DNA from: a virus
Taxonomy: Duplodnaviria > Caudoviricetes
DNA: 25,739 nucleotides
IMG/VR virus record: IMGVR_UViG_3300031655_000038
Location: 1 to 25,739 of that record
Direction: 5' to 3' (one strand)
Numbering within the stretch: position 1 is the stretch's first letter; the number at the start of each line of letters is the position of its first letter. The position numbers and the translations under genes are program-made. Positions 422 to 25,739 of the stretch are shown one piece after another. The notes beneath the pieces were generated by a model, which worked only from the letters and a program-made list of their open reading frames with translations, did no database searches and was not told where the DNA came from.

Positions 422-3400
422 ATGGCTAAGTCAGGTTATAATGCAAGTGCAGTAGCTCAGAGTCGTGCTGGGTATGCACCCACTGAATATGATAAGATGA
501 TGGGTTCAGTAGTACCTACTATGCCTTCTGAAAGGATTGCAGGGCAGATACCATTACCCTATGATGAGCAGCAAGCTGTACCAGTCACAGAAGGTCAGAT
601 GGCAGAGTATGAGCAGGCTGTCCCACCAAACGGTTGGGCACCTGTATCATATGGCCCTGAAGGTCCACCAGCTCCCGTTGCACAGCAAGCAGAAGTTCCA
701 ATACAAGCGGGTAGCAATGTAGTACCTATTATGCCGATGGAGCAACAGGTTGTAGCGAATCCTAATAACACCAACAATGTGGTATTACCTACAGATAAGA
801 TGACAGGTCGTAGGGGTTTAGATAACATCGAAACTACTGCACAACCTTTCCAACCTACTGCATTTGATCCTGATGAGGTCGTACGTGACCCTAATACAGG
901 CCTCGAGCTATCTGTAGAGGCTAAGAAGGCTTTATGGGATAAGGAGCAGAAGTTTCAACAGGAAAGAGTAGCAAATAGTAGTATGGATCTCACCGCTACA
1001 ACTAGAGAGGAAGTGAATGCGTCTATTAATAATAACCGTATGAATGGCCCTAAAGAACTTGGTGCTGTGTTTACACTGGGTGAGAACCTAGCTAATGCTT
1101 TACTCGCATTTACTGGTTTTTTCTCTACACCTGACAATGCTCCTGATATTTTTAAGGGTAAGGATGTAACACAGATATTAGCTCATCAATTTAATACAAC
1201 AGCCTTGAAAGTTGTTAACGCTGCAACAGAATCTGCAACTAAGGTGTTAGCAGCTATCGGTCAAGCTAAGTTGAGGGGTGCTATCAGGCAGGAGGTGATA
1301 GAAGGTGATTTCGATGTGGATGCCTTCTTTAGCGAGAGCGGAGAGAGTGAGAGTCTAATTAATGATGCCGATGGTACCATGGGTGTCGAAGTGGAAGCAA
1401 TGCACAGATGGTTAGCAGCATCTACTGACAGTATCATAAGAGGTTCCGACCAAACCCCAAGTCAGTCACAGGGTGTGGGTAAAGCTGGTTATATCTTAGC
1501 ACAAGGTTTAGAATCTGCTGGTTACATTATGAGAGATGATTACCAACCTTTAGATGTGAATACAGGTGAACCTAAAGGCCCTAGGATTAAAGCTTATCTT
1601 CTTACTGCCAAAGGTAAGGCTGCTGGTTCTTCTTTAATGAACTACACTACTCATAAAGGTATGAGGGGTGGTGCTTCTGCTATGTCAGGTAACACTACTG
1701 AACATATAGGGGCTTCACAATTAGTGGCAGGTAAAGGTGATAGTAGCAGGGCAGGACGTGATCAACCCGGTAATAAGGGTGTGAAAGTTATGCGTAAACT
1801 AGGTCGAATGATTAGTAATGCTATTAAAAGAGTAGATACTAATATGGTGGCCTTGTCAAGCACTATGCTAGCAGGGCTAAACACTACACCATCGGGGGAT
1901 GCTAACTCTTTCCTTAATCGTTTTCATGCTATGGCTCAGGATATACTTAACATAGACCAGAAGACAGTAATGGAGGCAGAAGAGTTTGGAGGTAAGGGAG
2001 TAGAAAGGAATATACCTATAAATGAATCAGCAAAAGCTAAGAAAGCTAGAAATGATATCTCTAATATCAGCCAATTACATGCACGTACCCCTTTACACAA
2101 GACCCCTAGTTTTGTAGACCCTTCTTCTTGGCGTAACTATGGTACTGTGTTTGACTCTAATGGTCAAGAGTCCATTACTCATCGTAATGTTGTTGTTGGT
2201 ATTGCACAGTCAGTAAATATAAAAGGTATGATGCCTGCCAAACTCAGTGATGGTAGTGAGTTGGTTACCAAATCACAGATGGATGCCTACAATAAATGGA
2301 TTAAAGGTGACTACCCAGCCAGCCCTACTGTTACTTATGTGGCCCATATGATAGCACTAGGTAATAGTTTAGTTCGTGGTTCTAGGGATTATAGCAATCA
2401 ACATACTCTGAATCAGATGAATGGTAACACACTACTAGAACACGCTAGAATAGGTCGTTCTATACAGAAGTTTATAGATATTAACGGTGAAGTGCAAGCT
2501 ACCCTTATTAAAAGTCCTGAGGAGCAAGGTAACCCTGCTGTAGAAATTAATATGGAAGGACTCACAGCTACGGAACAAGGTGATATCTTATCTGTTATGG
2601 AGAAGATAATATCTACTGGTAGTGAGAAGGAGTATGGAGCTATATTTAGGGGTTACATTGTTGCGGCTCAATATGCTGATGCTCATGCATCTGGTAAGAG
2701 TTCTATGTTTGTATCATTACCTACTGCGGCAGATATGAAGTCTGCGGGTCGATTATTCTCAGCTGTAGATATTATGGATGATGACACAGTATCCCGTGTG
2801 GGTATCGCTATGAATGCTGTAGCTGATGGAGCACCTGAGCATAGTGCCTTCCCATTAGGTAACCCTAGGCTGTTTTATACGCAGACATTAATAGAAGCTT
2901 TAAGAAGCCCTGATAATGGACCTAGTGGTTTCCCTAGAGGTAATGCGGATTTCACAGAATTCACAGCGCAACAATCAGCAGAAGTTGCAACATTACTTAG
3001 TGCTATGATGGACAAACAAGGCCCTACCTTTGCTGATATGACTGCTAAGTTGATACTTATGGTGGCTGACTATGGTAAGGCGGCAAGTCAGAATACTTTC
3101 GAGGTTAGTGTATTCTTAAGGAAGGCTGAAAAGAATGATCCTCAATTATTTGCTGAACTTCAGAATATATTTGAAGGGCAACCAGAAGGGGCTATAAATC
3201 AGTTCTTCGAGGAGGCTATGTGGAGTGCTACCACACAGATAGTTAATAGTAAGAATTCTGGTACTATAAAAAGAATGGCTGAAGCAATGGCTTTACTTAA
3301 CGTACAACCTTACTACATAGGTATCGGTGGTATGCGTGTACGTATTGGTAGAGGCATACAAGAGGTTATGCCGGGTTATACTTTCACCTTACAAACCCTA

Positions 3401-4306
3401 CATGGGTTAGAGGTTACTAATCTACAGACACAGTATAATGTAGATGATCCACTTCAGAAATCACCAGCTAGAATGTTGGAGGATGGAAGAACTTGGTATA
3501 CACCTGGGGTTGCTTCTGCGGCAGTTAACGCTACAGCACCTGCAATAGGCCACTCAAGAGAATCAGCAGCAATGGCATTAGCCTTATCAATGGTTGTAGA
3601 TAGACTTGGTGAGGGTATATTTATAGATCAGGTGTATGACTCTGTGACGTTAGAGCCGGAAGCCGCTGCATTATATAATCATTATCTTAATGAGATAGCC
3701 TTGTTTGAAGTATTAGCTGTTAACGATGCACACCAACTATCTCTAGCTTTTTGGGAAACCATGAAGACTGAGATAAATGGTAAGCCTGCTGATAAAGCAA
3801 CAGGTGAGCCAGCTATAAAAGGGATATTGCATAGAGATACAGTGACAGTTGGTCCTAGTGGAGAATTCTCTGGTTGGACTACTAAGCTAGATGAGGAATG
3901 GGCAGCGTTAACCACACCTCATGATAAGAAGCTAATTAAGAGTCAGAAGTTCTTAAACAATATAAAAAGTGCAGAAGGTAATCTAATAAGGAAATTACAT
4001 GCGGCTCAAGAGGCAGGCTTATGGAATCCCCCGGGCGACCGAGATATAACCCATACAGCGTATAGTAATAAGAAAGGTGTACCTGACAAAACCTATACCT
4101 TCACACCCAGAACCCCTAACTTGGATATATGGCTAGTGGATGGTAGAAAGTTTGGTACATGGTTATCTCTGCATGTAGTTAAAGATCTTAAGAAGAAAGG
4201 AGAAGAGTTGTGGTCCCCTAGCGACAGTAAGCGTCGTATAGAGTTCATAAAGCGTATGATGGCTGTCCAGAATAAGGCATTCCAATCACAAGGATTAGAT
4301 TTTTAA
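422..4306 (+). CDS. Large protein with a divergent T7/N4-type single-subunit RNA polymerase domain; putative virion-packaged RNAP
   Basis: Collinear motifs: FVDPSSWRNY..SNGQES (DxxGR-like, D566), LPTAADMKSAG (motif A, D771), TAKLILMVADYG (motif B, K876-x7-Y884G), TAPAIGHSRES (APNxxHSxD-like), QVYDSV (motif C, D1073). The N-terminal ~200 aa are Pro/Gln-rich. Confidence 0.75.
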   Translation: MAKSGYNASAVAQSRAGYAPTEYDKMMGSVVPTMPSERIAGQIPLPYDEQQAVPVTEGQMAEYEQAVPPNGWAPVSYGPEGPPAPVAQQAEVPIQAGSNVVPIMPMEQQVVANPNNTNNVVLPTDKMTGRRGLDNIETTAQPFQPTAFDPDEVVRDPNTGLELSVEAKKALWDKEQKFQQERVANSSMDLTATTREEVNASINNNRMNGPKELGAVFTLGENLANALLAFTGFFSTPDNAPDIFKGKDVTQILAHQFNTTALKVVNAATESATKVLAAIGQAKLRGAIRQEVIEGDFDVDAFFSESGESESLINDADGTMGVEVEAMHRWLAASTDSIIRGSDQTPSQSQGVGKAGYILAQGLESAGYIMRDDYQPLDVNTGEPKGPRIKAYLLTAKGKAAGSSLMNYTTHKGMRGGASAMSGNTTEHIGASQLVAGKGDSSRAGRDQPGNKGVKVMRKLGRMISNAIKRVDTNMVALSSTMLAGLNTTPSGDANSFLNRFHAMAQDILNIDQKTVMEAEEFGGKGVERNIPINESAKAKKARNDISNISQLHARTPLHKTPSFVDPSSWRNYGTVFDSNGQESITHRNVVVGIAQSVNIKGMMPAKLSDGSELVTKSQMDAYNKWIKGDYPASPTVTYVAHMIALGNSLVRGSRDYSNQHTLNQMNGNTLLEHARIGRSIQKFIDINGEVQATLIKSPEEQGNPAVEINMEGLTATEQGDILSVMEKIISTGSEKEYGAIFRGYIVAAQYADAHASGKSSMFVSLPTAADMKSAGRLFSAVDIMDDDTVSRVGIAMNAVADGAPEHSAFPLGNPRLFYTQTLIEALRSPDNGPSGFPRGNADFTEFTAQQSAEVATLLSAMMDKQGPTFADMTAKLILMVADYGKAASQNTFEVSVFLRKAEKNDPQLFAELQNIFEGQPEGAINQFFEEAMWSATTQIVNSKNSGTIKRMAEAMALLNVQPYYIGIGGMRVRIGRGIQEVMPGYTFTLQTLHGLEVTNLQTQYNVDDPLQKSPARMLEDGRTWYTPGVASAAVNATAPAIGHSRESAAMALALSMVVDRLGEGIFIDQVYDSVTLEPEAAALYNHYLNEIALFEVLAVNDAHQLSLAFWETMKTEINGKPADKATGEPAIKGILHRDTVTVGPSGEFSGWTTKLDEEWAALTTPHDKKLIKSQKFLNNIKSAEGNLIRKLHAAQEAGLWNPPGDRDITHTAYSNKKGVPDKTYTFTPRTPNLDIWLVDGRKFGTWLSLHVVKDLKKKGEELWSPSDSKRRIEFIKRMMAVQNKAFQSQGLDF

Positions 4307-4985: not shown

Positions 4986-7397
4986 CTAACAAAAGAAGTA
5001 ATCAGAGTGTAACACTTCTGATACGTCTAGTGTACCTTCTACAGGTAATTTAATGTTGCCCATATCTGATTTAGATAAGACATTGTCTCTGATATGTTCG
5101 AACTGACCTTTGGGTCCATACATATCTACGAATACTTCTTTAATAATAGTTGATAGTTCTTCTACATCACAAGCATGGGTAGCAAATGAATCATGTACCG
5201 GGGCTATCTCTCCGCTAAACTTATCTACTACTAACGCCATATGAGATGCGTCTTGTGAGTGTATATAGTTAGGAGCTATACCCGACGCATAACCTTGTTT
5301 GTCAGGTATTGTGGTCTCCACAGCTAATACATGCTTAAGTCTATTACGTGAGCTTATTCCCTTTAATACAGAGTCTATTTTCCATTCCTTCATAAGGTAG
5401 GCTCTATACTTCACAGGGAATCCAGAGGGGGATACCCAACTTAACTCCTTAGCACCATTACCTTTGGCAATGTAACTAGATATCATGTTGAACTTCTGGC
5501 TTAGCTTGTCTAACTCGATTATGTCTTCATTAGACTTTAATTTCTTACGTTGAATAACTTTCTTAGCAGCTATCAACTTACTTCTATCATGTTTACTAAC
5601 AGATTCACCTGTTAATTTGTGTAAATAACCTGTCTCACCTAACTCATAAGCAGCTAGTTGTTGGAGGAAAGTTTTGACCGTATCCGCACTAGGGCATACT
5701 GAATTAATAGCTTGTATAACAGACCTACTGAGTAGAGTACAATCAAACATATCAATGCTGTATTGATTAGTGAAACCTTCGGTGTAGCAGTCTTCATACA
5801 TATTATCCGCTATACGTGAGGTCCCAGCAGCATACTGTCGTACCATAGTGGCACGTTTAGTAATACCTTTTCTTATGTGCTTCATAGGTATCTTACGTGG
5901 GGTGAACCAATCGGGTAAGCTATCTACTAACACCTTAGCCACCTTGATATACAGATCACAAGGTACATCTGTCTTAGTAAGCCCTACCATAGCACCTGTT
6001 ATTGGGTCTTTACTCATTGCAGCGCTGTGTTGAATACCATTGCACATACCATCAATGGGTATGGGGAGGTGCGATATAACTTCTTCCCCTTCTTCACAGG
6101 AATTCCATGCTAACCACTCACAGGCACATGCAAAGAATACTATAGGCTTTTCACAGTCAATAAATTGGCCTTCAATAGCAGTAGCTAGTACCATATCATA
6201 GTTTTGTTCTAACCACCTAACCCTATCATCAAGGTTCATCTTATCTACAGAGATAGATTCTAACCCTTCCTTCTTTAATAGTGCTTTATAATCATATTCA
6301 CACCAAGAAGGGATAGATTCTATTGCATACGATTCATTAAAGCTATTAGCCGTGTGTATAGCCAACCAAGTGACACCTTTAGGGGTCAGGGGCTTTCCTT
6401 TTCCGAATTGTAGCAAACCTCTTGCTAGATCACCTCCTTGATAATTCAGGAACTGCTCTCGGATATAGTATCTTCCTCGATAGTCAACATCAACTAGCTG
6501 GAAGAAAGGCTTACCATATCCTTTAAGGGTGCTAGCCTTCTCTTTAATGATTTGAAATTCATAGTTTTTACTACGGGCTTTAAGTACTTTCTTTTTCTTA
6601 TTCCATAAATCTACTTCAGTAGCGTAGCAATTCTTAGTTTCCTGGGTTTCTTTTTTCTTTAGCGCTGTATAAGCTTTACGTACGGCTAACATAGAACCCG
6701 CTTCAGGTAAGGCTGTTTCCTTATGTAGAAAGTAACCTGTGTTACTCATCATAGCCTCATAAACACTTTCGTTGATAGACCACTTCATTTTATTTAGGGA
6801 GTTAAGCGATCTAAGCCAAGGTTCATCGATGTATTGTGGGAACTCACGTTCATCTTGAACACCCCATCGTTTAATTGCGGGGTAACCTAGGGTGTTTAGC
6901 TCAGTGATGCTCTCAGGCTTATGTAGAACAGTGTTGGGTAATAGCGCATCCCTAACAGAGTTGGGTACGTCACTAATAAAGCCCCATAGAGGACCCGGAG
7001 TGACCACGTAGGGGGCTGTGATAGCTCTGTCGGAAAATCCTTCTTCTCTAAATGTAGATATACAATCTTTAGCTTTGAATGCTTCTACAAACAGATCACC
7101 AAGGCGTATGGCTTTATCTTTAGGTAGTGGGGTGCCACCCATATAGGCACTTAGGGTTTCCCCGATAGATACAGATACCGAGGTTAGCTTAGCCATACCT
7201 GCTATGTCTCCATTGGCATCTCGTGAGAACTTTAATTGCATTTTCTCAGATGCTAGGTATACCATAGTAGGTAGCTTGAGCTTATAGTCAGGGTAAAAGG
7301 CTAATACTATGCACCCGGTATTGCCTCTAGGGCTGTTGGTGTTAGCTTTTTCAATACGTTCAATCAGATATTCAGCTATTTGTTCGATTAAATTCAT
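4986..7397 (-). CDS. T7-like single-subunit DNA-directed RNA polymerase
   Basis: DYRGRYY, NYQGGDLARGLL, motif A PIDGMCNGIQH, motif B RKGITKRATMVRQY, GIAPNYIHSQDASH, motif C VHDSF, C-terminal SDYFFC. Confidence 0.97.
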   Translation of the reverse strand: MNLIEQIAEYLIERIEKANTNSPRGNTGCIVLAFYPDYKLKLPTMVYLASEKMQLKFSRDANGDIAGMAKLTSVSVSIGETLSAYMGGTPLPKDKAIRLGDLFVEAFKAKDCISTFREEGFSDRAITAPYVVTPGPLWGFISDVPNSVRDALLPNTVLHKPESITELNTLGYPAIKRWGVQDEREFPQYIDEPWLRSLNSLNKMKWSINESVYEAMMSNTGYFLHKETALPEAGSMLAVRKAYTALKKKETQETKNCYATEVDLWNKKKKVLKARSKNYEFQIIKEKASTLKGYGKPFFQLVDVDYRGRYYIREQFLNYQGGDLARGLLQFGKGKPLTPKGVTWLAIHTANSFNESYAIESIPSWCEYDYKALLKKEGLESISVDKMNLDDRVRWLEQNYDMVLATAIEGQFIDCEKPIVFFACACEWLAWNSCEEGEEVISHLPIPIDGMCNGIQHSAAMSKDPITGAMVGLTKTDVPCDLYIKVAKVLVDSLPDWFTPRKIPMKHIRKGITKRATMVRQYAAGTSRIADNMYEDCYTEGFTNQYSIDMFDCTLLSRSVIQAINSVCPSADTVKTFLQQLAAYELGETGYLHKLTGESVSKHDRSKLIAAKKVIQRKKLKSNEDIIELDKLSQKFNMISSYIAKGNGAKELSWVSPSGFPVKYRAYLMKEWKIDSVLKGISSRNRLKHVLAVETTIPDKQGYASGIAPNYIHSQDASHMALVVDKFSGEIAPVHDSFATHACDVEELSTIIKEVFVDMYGPKGQFEHIRDNVLSKSDMGNIKLPVEGTLDVSEVLHSDYFFC

Positions 7398-9813: not shown

Positions 9814-10516
9814 TCAGTATCTCCTTTTTACCTGTTTGCACATTATAACGCTCATTGGGTTCCTGACGGATATAGATCAGGTCAGTCATAAGCTGACAAT
9901 ACTTTAACCATTCAGGTTCATTAGACAGCGTACGATAGGCTTCTTTTACAACAGATAACCTATTGGACGTTGGTACCATTAGCAGGATTTTCTCAGCCTT
10001 CTTGATACCGATACCTTTAATACCGGGTATACCGTCTGTACTATCACCTGTTAACATCTGTAAGTGTAACAGTAGATGCGCACCGTCTATGTCGGCAGGG
10101 TGGTGTATATCTTTTTGAGGGTTATACACTGGTACAGGTACAGTCCGCAGATCTTTATCTGGACTGATTATGGTACCATTGTTAGCCATTGCAAGATAGG
10201 CTACTACATCATCAGCTTCTTCACCATCAGCTTTAATAGCCTTATAGTGGTTAACCAATCGCTCGTATACAGCATCCATGATAGCTTTCTTTTCAGGGTC
10301 TTCTTCAGACTTTCGGTGAGATTTATACTGTGGGTATATATCGTGCCTAAAGTTTCCTTTACCCTTAACTACAAAGGTTACATCATCTATATGTGCCCAT
10401 AGTTCTGCTAAGACTGCCTCTATAGAATGGTCTAGTTTCTCTAAAGCTTCTTCAAGTGTTTTATCACCCCAAGAAGCTACATATACTAATGCATCAGCAT
10501 CATAGTAATATTTCAT
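9806..10516 (-). CDS. T7 gp6-like 5'-3' exonuclease
   Basis: DADAL, NFRHDIYPQYKSHR, EADD, SPDKDL, GDSTDGIPGIKGIG; start moved to ATG 10516 after GGAGG. Confidence 0.93.
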   Translation of the reverse strand: MKYYYDADALVYVASWGDKTLEEALEKLDHSIEAVLAELWAHIDDVTFVVKGKGNFRHDIYPQYKSHRKSEEDPEKKAIMDAVYERLVNHYKAIKADGEEADDVVAYLAMANNGTIISPDKDLRTVPVPVYNPQKDIHHPADIDGAHLLLHLQMLTGDSTDGIPGIKGIGIKKAEKILLMVPTSNRLSVVKEAYRTLSNEPEWLKYCQLMTDLIYIRQEPNERYNVQTGKKEILNA

Positions 10517-22206: not shown

Positions 22207-22260
22207 AGAGACTTAATTGCCTCTCAGAAAGCCCCGTAAGGGCTTTGCAAGATTCAACTA
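22207..22260 (-). repeat. Structured intergenic repeat, copy A
   Basis: AGAGACTTAATTGCCTCTCAGAAAGCCCCGTAAGGGCTTTGCAAGATTCAACTA, near-identical to 22931-22983. Confidence 0.85.
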
Positions 22261-22902
22261 CCAACTTGCTCCATGTTTATTTAATTTAAGTTTAGCTTCA
22301 TCAATACTTGGCCACGACCTTTTACTTTGTTTATTTGGTAGTAACTTCATATTGACAATGACCTTATGACCTAAGGTAACTTTATTGCCATGATTCTTTT
22401 GATAGTATTCTACTAACAATTCTCTTTCCTCTTCCATGGAAAGACCCATTTTTCGGTGAGAATCATACGTACTCTTTGTGCTTTCTAATACGAAGAATAC
22501 ATCATCTTTCGTATGCACACGGACTACGTTGTTGGTAACATTATCGAATCCTACTACAATTATTTTTTTGAATCTTGTACTAGCTTTTTCTCTTTCAACT
22601 TTCTTTCGACTTTTTGGTAGTAATTTTATATTGGTAACTACATTATGATCTTTAGTAATTTGATTACCATAATCACGAACATAGTATTCTACTTGTAAGA
22701 CTCTCTTTTCTTCCATAGAAGAACCTAGCTTTCGCCAAGCATTACGAGTATTTTTTACTTTTTCGAATACCATGAAGACATCCCCTGCATGTGTATGTAC
22801 TCGTATTATATTGTCGGCAACATTACCGAAGCTTTCTACATAAATCCTTTTATACTTTGTAGGAGTTCCCTGCTCCTTGACTTCTGCTCTTGTTCTTGTC
22901 AT
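22258..22902 (-). CDS. Hypothetical protein with two tandem ~80-aa repeats
   Basis: K.I.V..F.NV..N..RVHT..DVF.V.E...RK.G.SMEE.R.L.VEYY....GN..T..H.V..N.KLLP occurs twice. Confidence 0.85.
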   Translation of the reverse strand: MTRTRAEVKEQGTPTKYKRIYVESFGNVADNIIRVHTHAGDVFMVFEKVKNTRNAWRKLGSSMEEKRVLQVEYYVRDYGNQITKDHNVVTNIKLLPKSRKKVEREKASTRFKKIIVVGFDNVTNNVVRVHTKDDVFFVLESTKSTYDSHRKMGLSMEEERELLVEYYQKNHGNKVTLGHKVIVNMKLLPNKQSKRSWPSIDEAKLKLNKHGASW

Positions 22903-23693: not shown

Positions 23694-23942
23694 CTATATT
23701 AGGTCAGCAAACTCTAAGGTTATACCCTTGTGGACTTGGTATAGCCCCCAGAGCCTCTGAGCTTCCTCTATTGTTATAAAGTCTGCATTATAATCTGAAT
23801 TCAGCCTTTGAGCCATGGCCTCATTTAACCCACCTGACGCTACTATTGCATTGGGATACAACCCCTTTAAATAGAGGTTATAGTTATTTAGGGACTTTTT
23901 AATCGTTACCCCATTACGATCTATAGGTATAGACATATTCAT
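23694..23942 (-). CDS. Hypothetical early protein
   Basis: 82-aa ORF with AAGGA SD, followed by a minus-strand hairpin (23653-23685). Confidence 0.7.
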   Translation of the reverse strand: MNMSIPIDRNGVTIKKSLNNYNLYLKGLYPNAIVASGGLNEAMAQRLNSDYNADFITIEEAQRLWGLYQVHKGITLEFADLI

Positions 23943-24090: not shown

Positions 24091-24234
24091 TCACATGTTA
24101 TCGGGGTCTGAGTGATACGTTGTTAGGTTACAGTCCTCGTAGTAGTTATCATCGTAGATAACTTCTCTTGTTAGGAGGATAGCTGTAGCACATAGGATGA
24201 TTGTTGAGGCTACAATAGCCTTTGCCACATCCAT
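24091..24234 (-). CDS. 47-aa peptide with N-terminal hydrophobic segment (not in ORF track)
   Basis: MDVAKAIVASTIILCATAILLTREVIYDD...NM*, TAATG-coupled to the upstream gene. Confidence 0.5.
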   Translation of the reverse strand: MDVAKAIVASTIILCATAILLTREVIYDDNYYEDCNLTTYHSDPDNM

Positions 24235-24452
24235 TATTGAAAAGACCTATCGATACGACAAGTCTCACCGTCACGATAGATATCCGAGCGTTCAACCCCC
24301 TGAGAGACCCAGTGGGCTATACAGGTATTCTGTAGATCCCACTGGGATTTGAAGATCCCGTGGTTAATATAGAGGGACGTGGCTAGCATCCCAAGCGATA
24401 GCATTATGCACATACCAATGGTTAGTACACAACAAAACTTTACAGCGCTCAT
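24234..24452 (-). CDS. Small membrane-anchored protein
   Basis: AGGAGG SD before ATG 24452; N-terminal TM segment, then CIA...GVERSDI....TC. Confidence 0.75.
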   Translation of the reverse strand: MSAVKFCCVLTIGMCIMLSLGMLATSLYINHGIFKSQWDLQNTCIAHWVSQGVERSDIYRDGETCRIDRSFQ

Positions 24453-24521: not shown

Positions 24522-24929
24522 CTAACCACCCATAGAGCATTGAAACACGTCAGGCTCTTTAGATTCGGACTTAGACCAACGAGCTTCAGCGTTAACCAAG
24601 ACTCTTTCTGGATCATGCCAAGCATTCCAAGCAGCACGATCAGCCAAGAAGGCTTCACTCGCCAAGAATTCAGACATAGCCAAATCAGCAATAGCCCGAC
24701 ATTCAGCAGCCATTTCTTCCGCACGGAACTGAATGGCTTCATCCTCTACAGCAGCAGAGAATTCCCAGTCACCAGCATCAGCCAAGGCAACAATACGACG
24801 CGCCTCCTTCAACTGGGCAGCAGCGATTAAGCGACGTTCACCACGATCACGGCCTTGAGAGCCTGTCGTATCCCCAACACGTTCAGCTTCTTCTAAGCAA
24901 GCCAAACCACTAAAATTAAAATTCCACAT
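24522..24929 (-). CDS. Ala/Glu-rich helical early protein (second gene of the arm)
   Basis: GGAGGTTGTT-ATG at 24929 (MWNFNF...), 135 aa, net acidic. Confidence 0.8.
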   Translation of the reverse strand: MWNFNFSGLACLEEAERVGDTTGSQGRDRGERRLIAAAQLKEARRIVALADAGDWEFSAAVEDEAIQFRAEEMAAECRAIADLAMSEFLASEAFLADRAAWNAWHDPERVLVNAEARWSKSESKEPDVFQCSMGG

Positions 24930-25034
24930 AACAACCTCCAGCAGACGCCCCCACAGCGATACGACACACCACGAGGGGCAAAGAGGTGTGAAGAAAGGAA
25001 GGACCTTTACAAAGGAGCCAAGACGGACCCTTTG

Positions 25035-25066
25035 AAAAGAACCCACGCCCCCCGAGAGGAGCGCAG
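25035..25066 (-). terminator. A-free hairpin plus U-tract after the adenine-free gene
   Basis: Minus strand CTGCGCTCCT-CTCG-GGGGGCGTGG then GTTCTTTT; the stem uses only G-C and G-U pairs. Confidence 0.6.
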
Positions 25067-25076
25067 AAAACAGCGG

Positions 25077-25496
25077 TTACAAAGCAGCAAGGCCGCAGAA
25101 GTAACCAGAACAAACGGAACCACGAGCACCCGGAGCACCGAGCACAGAGACCACGGCACCAGAGGCAAGAGCGGAGCGAACAGAAGCCGCAAGGGAAACC
25201 GCAGCAGGACCACCGAAGCCACCGGGAAGACCGGAGACAAGACAGCAGAACGAGGCACCAGAGGCGAGCGAGACAAGCACACCGGAACGACGAGGGCACC
25301 AGCCCACAGAGGCCACGACACCCGAGGCGACGGGAACAAAGCGAGACGCAGGCACAGACCCGGCACGCCCGAGGGAGAGCGAGGCAGGAGCGAACGGAAC
25401 GAAGGCAACGGCAGGAGCCACGGCAACAGGAGCAGCAACAGGGGCCGAACGAACGAAACCAACGGGAAGAACAAACGAAGGAGAGAAAGAAGACAT
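25077..25496 (-). CDS. Adenine-free first early gene, 139 aa (MSSFSPSFVLPVG...GYFCGLAAL)
   Basis: The only sense-strand A's in 25034-25628 are the ATG (25496), an in-frame TAC (25102) and the TAA (25078, 25077). An SD-like GGTGGTG precedes the ATG. Confidence 0.8.
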   Translation of the reverse strand: MSSFSPSFVLPVGFVRSAPVAAPVAVAPAVAFVPFAPASLSLGRAGSVPASRFVPVASGVVASVGWCPRRSGVLVSLASGASFCCLVSGLPGGFGGPAAVSLAASVRSALASGAVVSVLGAPGARGSVCSGYFCGLAAL

Positions 25497-25658
25497 AACA
25501 AACACCACCGCGCGGAAAGAGGGCCAAGCACGGACAACACCCACGGCCAAGACGGCCAGCCCACGGCACCGGACGACCCGGAACAGCAGGAGCAGAAGGG
25601 GGGGACCCCGGAAAAAAAAGGGAACCCCTCCCCCCCTCACTGTACCTATCCCGCATAG

Positions 25659-25739
25659 AACAAACCCTCCCCGATAAACTCTAACAATCCCTAAAACAAA
25701 CCTCCATACCCTAACATTTCACCACTATATCGACCCCAC
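25659..25739. repeat. G-poor terminal tract with degenerate CCCTAA(C)A-like short repeats; probable genome end
   Basis: Only two G's on + in about 80 nt; actctaaca, ccctaaaaca, ccctaaca. Confidence 0.4.

Follow-up and report, generated by a model that had tools for sequence, protein, structure and literature searches.

The stretch of DNA analysed here (the window, all 25,739 nt of the IMG/VR virus record IMGVR_UViG_3300031655_000038) comes, by its gene content, from a CRP-7-type podovirus: it has divergent arms, a Cobavirus-like DNA polymerase, a distant T7-like RNA polymerase and a T4-like terminase, and its nearest cultured phage is Roseobacter phage CRP-7 (MK613349), whose terminase is 60% identical. 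The early arm, which lies back to back with the terminase, portal and capsid genes, is headed by a gene whose sense strand is almost devoid of adenine. The features were assigned as follows.

25629 to 25739, minus strand: C-poor upstream segment in which A is still present, putatively part of the left terminal repeat (composition, conserved block)
25034 to 25628, minus strand: tract with a thymine-free template (A-free sense strand), comprising leader, gene and terminator (base counts)
25600 to 25624, minus strand: T[AT]CCC-N14-18-CCCCC element at the start of the tract (present at 53 of 82 non-redundant loci)
25503 to 25509, minus strand: A-free, Shine-Dalgarno-like GGTGGTG (sequence)
25077 to 25496, minus strand: first gene, encoding the 139-aa protein P0001 with an OB-fold core at residues about 33-139 (frame, homologs, structure model)
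25034 to 25067, minus strand: terminator-like hairpin (25067-25042) and U tail (hairpin folding; equivalent at 10430-10455 of the near-identical locus L011)
24522 to 24929, minus strand: second early gene, partially depleted of A (A at 5% of four-fold sites; codon-site composition)
24234 to 24452, minus strand: third early gene, where the gradient ends (19% A at four-fold sites; codon-site composition)
4986 to 7397, minus strand: gene for a T7-like RNA polymerase, closing the early arm (profile matches)
422 to 4306, plus strand: final gene of the structural arm, encoding a predicted virion RNA polymerase of 1294 aa with the fold of a single-subunit enzyme (structure model, Foldseek, motifs)

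Counting bases over the 595 nt of the tract gave 218 A, 193 G, 180 C and only 4 T on the plus strand, and the T-free runs of 43, 23, 393 and 132 nt listed by an initial annotation of this DNA were reproduced exactly. The four T's, at positions 25077, 25078, 25102 and 25496, are the sense A's of the ATG, of the TAC of Tyr132 and of the TAA, again as that annotation had it, and the GGUGGUG it proposed as Shine-Dalgarno sequence, as opposed to the GGAGG of the next gene, is likewise there. T makes up 32.6% of the window overall, the longest T-free run outside the tract region is 20 nt, and a run of 393 nt has a log10 P of about -67 per position under the base-composition expectation.

An assembly artefact, which the initial annotation had named as the first thing to check, was ruled out because contigs from sequencing runs agree and because CRP-7 independently carries an equivalent tract. 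Contigs from four of four public runs (which may include the window's own source), placed on the near-identical locus L011, spanned all or most of the tract with no differing letters. The search for T-free tracts in related phages that it had also proposed was positive: an A-poor tract covering gene and flanks was found at all 33 homolog loci fetched, many of them near-identical and some cut by contig ends. Loci L010-L012 are near-copies of the window and were excluded from independent counts.

The 139-aa ATG frame is a real gene, as had been claimed. Protein searches returned 15 close homologs and 41 representatives of homolog clusters, one of which was clearly spurious and several of which have an ordinary amino-acid composition. 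Aligned with the window, the six closest homologs had pN/pS values of 0.09-0.23 and seven distant ones 0.46-0.81 (uncorrected), and across these 13 comparisons no synonymous third-position change involved A; the alignment suggested by the initial annotation thus gave both purifying selection and synonymous third-position changes free of A. Amino-acid replacements were conservative relative to the homologs of normal composition. AlphaFold modelled residues 31-139 with a pLDDT of about 95 as an OB fold with a five-stranded topology and a helix. Matches were at fold level only, with Z values of 7-8 to AB5 B-subunit folds and about 5 to SSBs, which are not the best fold matches; these values may mirror the common fold alone and do not imply a toxin function. 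P0001 is a basic protein, unlike acidic DNA mimics. No family was named for it by Pfam, PHROGs, PADLOC, PDB-sequence or Atlas searches, and tblastn against cultured phages gave no match. A related subfamily of normal composition is encoded near the same place in close relatives, its link to P0001 being weak (E 2.6e-4), and one of its members is recoded A-free in L084. Since stop codons all start with T and include an A, the alternative frames stay open by default. Neither the opposite-strand ORF 25032-25658 nor any other open frame was accepted as a gene, the purifying signal, the fold and the homologs of normal composition being unique to the ATG frame.

The constraint itself was characterised in the 17 of 30 non-redundant tracts that have the ATG frame. 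A occupied 4 of 2265 third positions in these genes, 80 of the 86 A-containing codons encoded residues that have no A-free codon, and the leaders of A-free tracts held 18 A in 3057 nt, which bears out the earlier proposal of selection at the nucleic-acid level that includes the flanks. Lost A's were replaced evenly by C, G and T, and G was raised, not lowered. Residual sense AA, AG and GA were not specially depleted and isolated A's were purged as well; those A's that were retained stood for the most part within GA (44 of the 86 A-containing codons). The loss of the base is therefore per base, context-free and strand-specific, and it spans leader, gene and terminator. The stop codon behaved differently: TAA was used at 31 of 33 related loci as compared with 145 of 209 genome-wide, which simple per-A cost models do not explain unless termination efficiency outweighs the cost.

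Base loss begins at the T[AT]CCC-N14-18-CCCCC element, which likely marks a terminus or acts as a phage promoter directed towards the structural arm. A second CCC-N-CCCCC copy lies at 23723-23749 (plus strand) in non-coding early-arm DNA in the orientation opposite to the tract copy, and additional copies in G001, G004 and G023 point along the structural arm. Directly past the terminator-like hairpin, whose folding z was -0.6 in the window and -1.8 to -3.0 in homologs, A's reappear, and over genes 1-4 the share of A at four-fold sites rises from 0 to 5, 19 and 31%, with 31-59% further on. Farther along the early arm, 22258-22902 (minus strand) encodes a 214-aa protein with two internal repeats and no family match of note. 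The initial annotation had placed the gene at the probable first-injected end. Gene order confirms it at the head of the early arm, while the genome end itself I infer from a conserved block that relatives share (about 9748-9912 in L011) and from contig ends near it, which together suggest a terminal repeat. Between the terminase and this block, L011 9700-9755 holds two short inverted repeats and an AT-rich stretch, a segment that varies among relatives.

In addition to the polymerase of the early arm, the frame at 422-4306 is encoded among virion and ejection genes. It had no match in Pfam or PHROGs, and its structure model (pLDDT 73) showed the fold of a single-subunit RNA polymerase, including motifs A, B and C, and had Foldseek matches, at E about 1e-8, to the mitochondrial POLRMT, T7 RNAP and N4 vRNAP. 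The motifs are retained in CRP-7 gp33 (L035 17859-21566; a weak match, E 3.7e-4), and homologs measure 1215-1336 aa (lengths up to 2265 aa were searched). The product is likely virion-borne. In G023, G024 and G026, two adjacent large proteins each match part of the polymerase profile.

Among relatives, a sister clade has first genes that lack G instead of A; this and the frequencies that follow are for loci selected by their terminase, with 36 of 110 rows set aside for having little upstream DNA, and the terminase tree is a quick version. The 82 non-redundant loci comprised 21 A-free, 15 G-free and 46 that were neither, with none C-free or T-free, so that only sense purines, i.e. template pyrimidines, are dropped. 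One G-free run, in G022, reached 648 nt, and 47 of the 56 G-containing codons of this class were obligatory. Several protein families occupy the first-gene slot in the G clade; the proteins encoded G-free upstream of the terminase, at L226 among other loci of the clade, are rich in Asn, Gln, Ile, Leu and Pro and show no relation to P0001. Outside the clade, L253 has a G-free tract about 690-1200 nt upstream of the terminase, possibly of independent origin. Within the clade, the phage contig L142 lies inside a Pelagibacter-labelled assembled genome, a weak hint at the host. The long tract may be present or absent even between near-identical relatives, and a short A-poor leader is often retained: of the 37 anchored loci that lie outside the G clade, 23 have no more than 5 A among their first 100 nt.

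The sister clade also differs in its nucleotide enzymes. Thymidylate-synthase-family genes occurred in 12 of 41 records, all 12 in the G clade or its own sister; the remaining records, namely 7 G-clade fragments, 17 of the A lineage (3 of these at least 90% complete) and 5 others, had no such gene. An Asn to Asp change switches ThyA-family enzymes to dCMP (methylase or hydroxymethylase), and all 12 genes carry this Asp in place of ThyA's Asn. These genes (L279-L290, from marine podoviruses) comprise nine ThyA-like ones with the specificity-site Asp and three with T4-type dCMP hydroxymethylase motifs, and are accompanied by dCMP deaminase and MazG-like genes. They are predicted to modify cytosine, and the template of the G-free clade would therefore lack the very base predicted to be modified. 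The tracts of the 12 enzyme-bearing records were long and G-free in 4, short or weak in 7 and cut off in 1, and the link between enzyme and tract is essentially that of one clade or lineage.

Loss that is context-free, with no context effects of the kind expected from UV or toxins, points to a hazard at template pyrimidines or at the incorporation of ATP or GTP. A C-free template and a G-free transcript are indistinguishable by sequence; the template reading is preferred because the cytosine-type enzymes occur with the G-free clade. My favoured explanation, held tentatively and at somewhat less than even confidence, is that T is kept off the template of the first gene because, in incoming virion DNA, a T there would come under attack or could not be read as the predicted virion polymerase makes its first copy of that strand; the general rule would then probably be a template strand without the vulnerable pyrimidine. 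The polymerase would be ejected with the DNA, read the putative entering end first and pull the genome in, as proposed for N4. A template lesion would then halt both expression and genome entry, which damage to the T-rich coding strand would not. The OB-fold product may be a nucleic-acid-binding or inhibitor protein that reduces the hazard, and the constraint would consequently weaken along the arm. A T-free template had been among the earlier suggestions, and it is this part of that suggestion that fits best.

As for what might make T hazardous, my guess is partial uracil, or an unrecognised T analogue, excised by a host glycosylase. Its one support is that the A-lineage genomes G001-G003 have a dCMP deaminase and no ThyA-family gene. 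Against it, dCMP deaminase is present in G-clade genomes as well and absent from the window and CRP-7, and MazG and deoxyribosyltransferase-like genes, looked for as marks of uracil-DNA phages, are patchy. Fully uracil DNA resists standard sequencing libraries; CRP-7 and the contigs analysed here were sequenced without reported trouble. The hypermodified T of the initial annotation fared less well than its T-free template: no thymine-modifying enzyme was detected in the window, in 67 of 72 CRP-7 proteins, in G001-G003, or in 27 ORFs of the structural arm of the near-identical G674 (with a gap of some kb), and no dUMP hydroxymethylase of the 5hmdU type in 17 A-lineage records or CRP-7. PurZ, the mark of a Z genome, was absent from five near-complete genomes and from CRP-7, and C5 methyltransferases from five genomes. 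A more complete scenario for this widespread marine phage family, which I consider unlikely as a whole, would join an unrecognised virion polymerase of ~1300 aa to a three-letter gene whose template lacks the pyrimidine that each lineage makes non-canonical (modified C in one clade; in CRP-7 and the window phage an undescribed T substitute from an unrecognised pathway): the host would destroy the other strand, and the polymerase would read the survivor so that the protector is made.

The initial annotation had also suggested an mRNA that can be transcribed when ATP is depleted, and this part of its second hypothesis is a live rival, albeit one to which I would give little more than an outside chance. 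In a host that is starving or defending itself, ATP (or GTP in the sister clade) would be in short supply or poisoned; a transcript lacking that base could still be made, and the polymerase would pause where A-rich DNA follows. Energy supply and alarmones both involve ATP and GTP, and a restriction to purines, a context-free cost per base and a tract that stops at the terminator and gives way to a gradient are all in keeping with such economy. However, translating the gene costs as much ATP as transcribing it, G goes up in the A-free tracts, and the occurrence of cytosine-type enzymes with the G-free clade would go unexplained.

Restriction invisibility of the first-entering DNA, mainly towards bipartite m6A Type I systems as in the T7 leading region before Ocr, was the first hypothesis of the initial annotation and now appears improbable. 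With A missing from one strand, 123 of 181 palindromic specificities have no possible site and, logically, neither has any bipartite m6A system; GC-only palindromes are mildly depleted in the A-free genes (observed/expected 0.73, as against 0.87 for non-palindromes); and a gradient and a swappable cassette are compatible with an arms race. Nevertheless, the tracts are not free of sites: palindromic sites still number 9-16 per 100 bp in them, where DNA outside has about 17-18, and the 17 genes retain 127 GC-only 4-mer palindromes. About 110-120 bp closer to the putative end retain A, and P0001, being basic, is no acidic DNA mimic. To restriction, as to any strand-blind agent, G-free and C-free are equivalent (12 of 181 palindromic sites possible in each), yet the sister clade adopted the costlier spelling, with 11 amino acids available instead of 15.

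Resistance of the mRNA to a base-specific ribonuclease or RNA-modifying toxin, the other part of the second hypothesis, fared worse still and is distinctly improbable. The tract does coincide with the transcription unit, untranslated parts included. Toxins such as MazF (ACA), ToxN and CmdT (GA) are motif-specific and would not purge every context, though, and most of the A's that remain stand in GA; a context-free RNase would wreck host translation too. Only slightly poorer prospects attach to evasion of viperin chain terminators (ddhATP or ddhGTP), which would halt phage single-subunit polymerases and not host translation. Its logic is per base and strand-specific, and viperin genes were found in about 4 of 401 alphaproteobacterial genomes. 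According to the available portion of the source (10.1101/2023.09.13.557418), viperins produce ddhGTP in vivo but ddhATP in vitro only, yet A-free is the commoner class. None of 251 Pelagibacter-family genomes searched, with a positive control run, had a viperin gene, and, common as ddhCTP and ddhUTP are, no C- or U-free member exists. In three alphaproteobacterial genomes (L268, L270, L271) the viperin genes scored below the NCBIfam cut-off and strongly on PADLOC models.

Two further ideas can be dealt with briefly. Directed A-to-N hypermutation in the style of diversity-generating retroelements, instead of selection, would account for lost A's being spread evenly over C, G and T with obligatory A's alone surviving, but it is very hard to credit as no reverse transcriptase appeared in Pfam scans, the sister clade would require a separate G-specific process, and replacements are conservative relative to normal homologs. 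UV protection of the transcribed strand, which would suit marine phages inasmuch as a T-free template eliminates most dimer sites, is the least credible of all given the undepleted residual AA, AG and GA, the purged isolated A's, the retained TAA and the abundant template TT of G-free members; the UV part of the earlier third hypothesis thus lacks support. Weakening of the RNA:DNA hybrid was rejected as a cause of A loss, the effect being small (0.07-0.08 kcal/mol per step relative to distal DNA).

The literature covered, which takes in few of the subscription journals, holds no description of this feature, in line with the initial annotation, and no report of a modified-base phage with a gene purged of that base. 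What is new is a class of T-free templates, a switch of the missing base within one family, a cultured representative and a candidate virion polymerase, which as predicted would be a compact one. Natural folded proteins have here been rewritten with an alphabet of ten or eleven amino acids, which lets one strand go without a base. Selection has been strong and repeated and its cause is undescribed; which base is missing points to whatever attacks the phage's DNA or RNA within seconds of infection, and could be the sign of a novel DNA chemistry or a defence not yet recognised.

Compared with known systems, P0001 shares the OB topology of AB5 B-subunits and of SSB/PriB, without a sequence family match. 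T5 first-step-transfer DNA and the T7 leading region with Ocr are specialised first-entering DNA with an early gene that likely acts against host defence. The window resembles them in having specialised early-gene DNA at the head of the early arm (and, putatively, at the genome end), but T5 and T7 lack particular restriction sites whereas here a whole base is absent from one strand and GC palindromes stay. Modified-base phages include those with T4-type hydroxymethyl-C or 5-methyl-C and the dU roseophages; the dCMP-type thymidylate-synthase homologs of the sister clade are a point of likeness, in contrast to the A-free lineages, in which no T-modifying pathway was detected. That the identity of template-strand bases can matter is seen at AR9 promoters, as far as the accessible text of PMC5449584 goes.

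N4 likewise has a second single-subunit polymerase among its virion genes and small first genes at the entering end. Its polymerase is packaged in the virion, and its early transcription resists rifampicin and starts from hairpin promoters in single-stranded form. In the accessible part of PMC13434306, single-stranded DNA serves the N4 enzyme as template, a role for it in pulling in the genome is proposed, and no base-free early genes are described; the enzyme differs in its size, about 3500 aa with a large C-terminal domain against 1294 aa here, and a hairpin promoter like that of N4 was not identified in the window phage. The closest likeness is to CRP-7, which shares the gene order, the second polymerase (gp33) and an A-free tract at about 57384-57897 that encodes a distant P0001 homolog. 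The accessible text of its description (PMC6918029) mentions neither the tract nor the second polymerase, and the record leaves gp33 hypothetical and calls the stop-free opposite strand gp72 (L036 9272-9995 corresponds to CRP-7 57271-57994). The real CRP-7 gene is likely the A-free frame starting at L036 9609; annotation puts such genes on the wrong strand. As CRP-7 is in culture, the explanation is directly testable.
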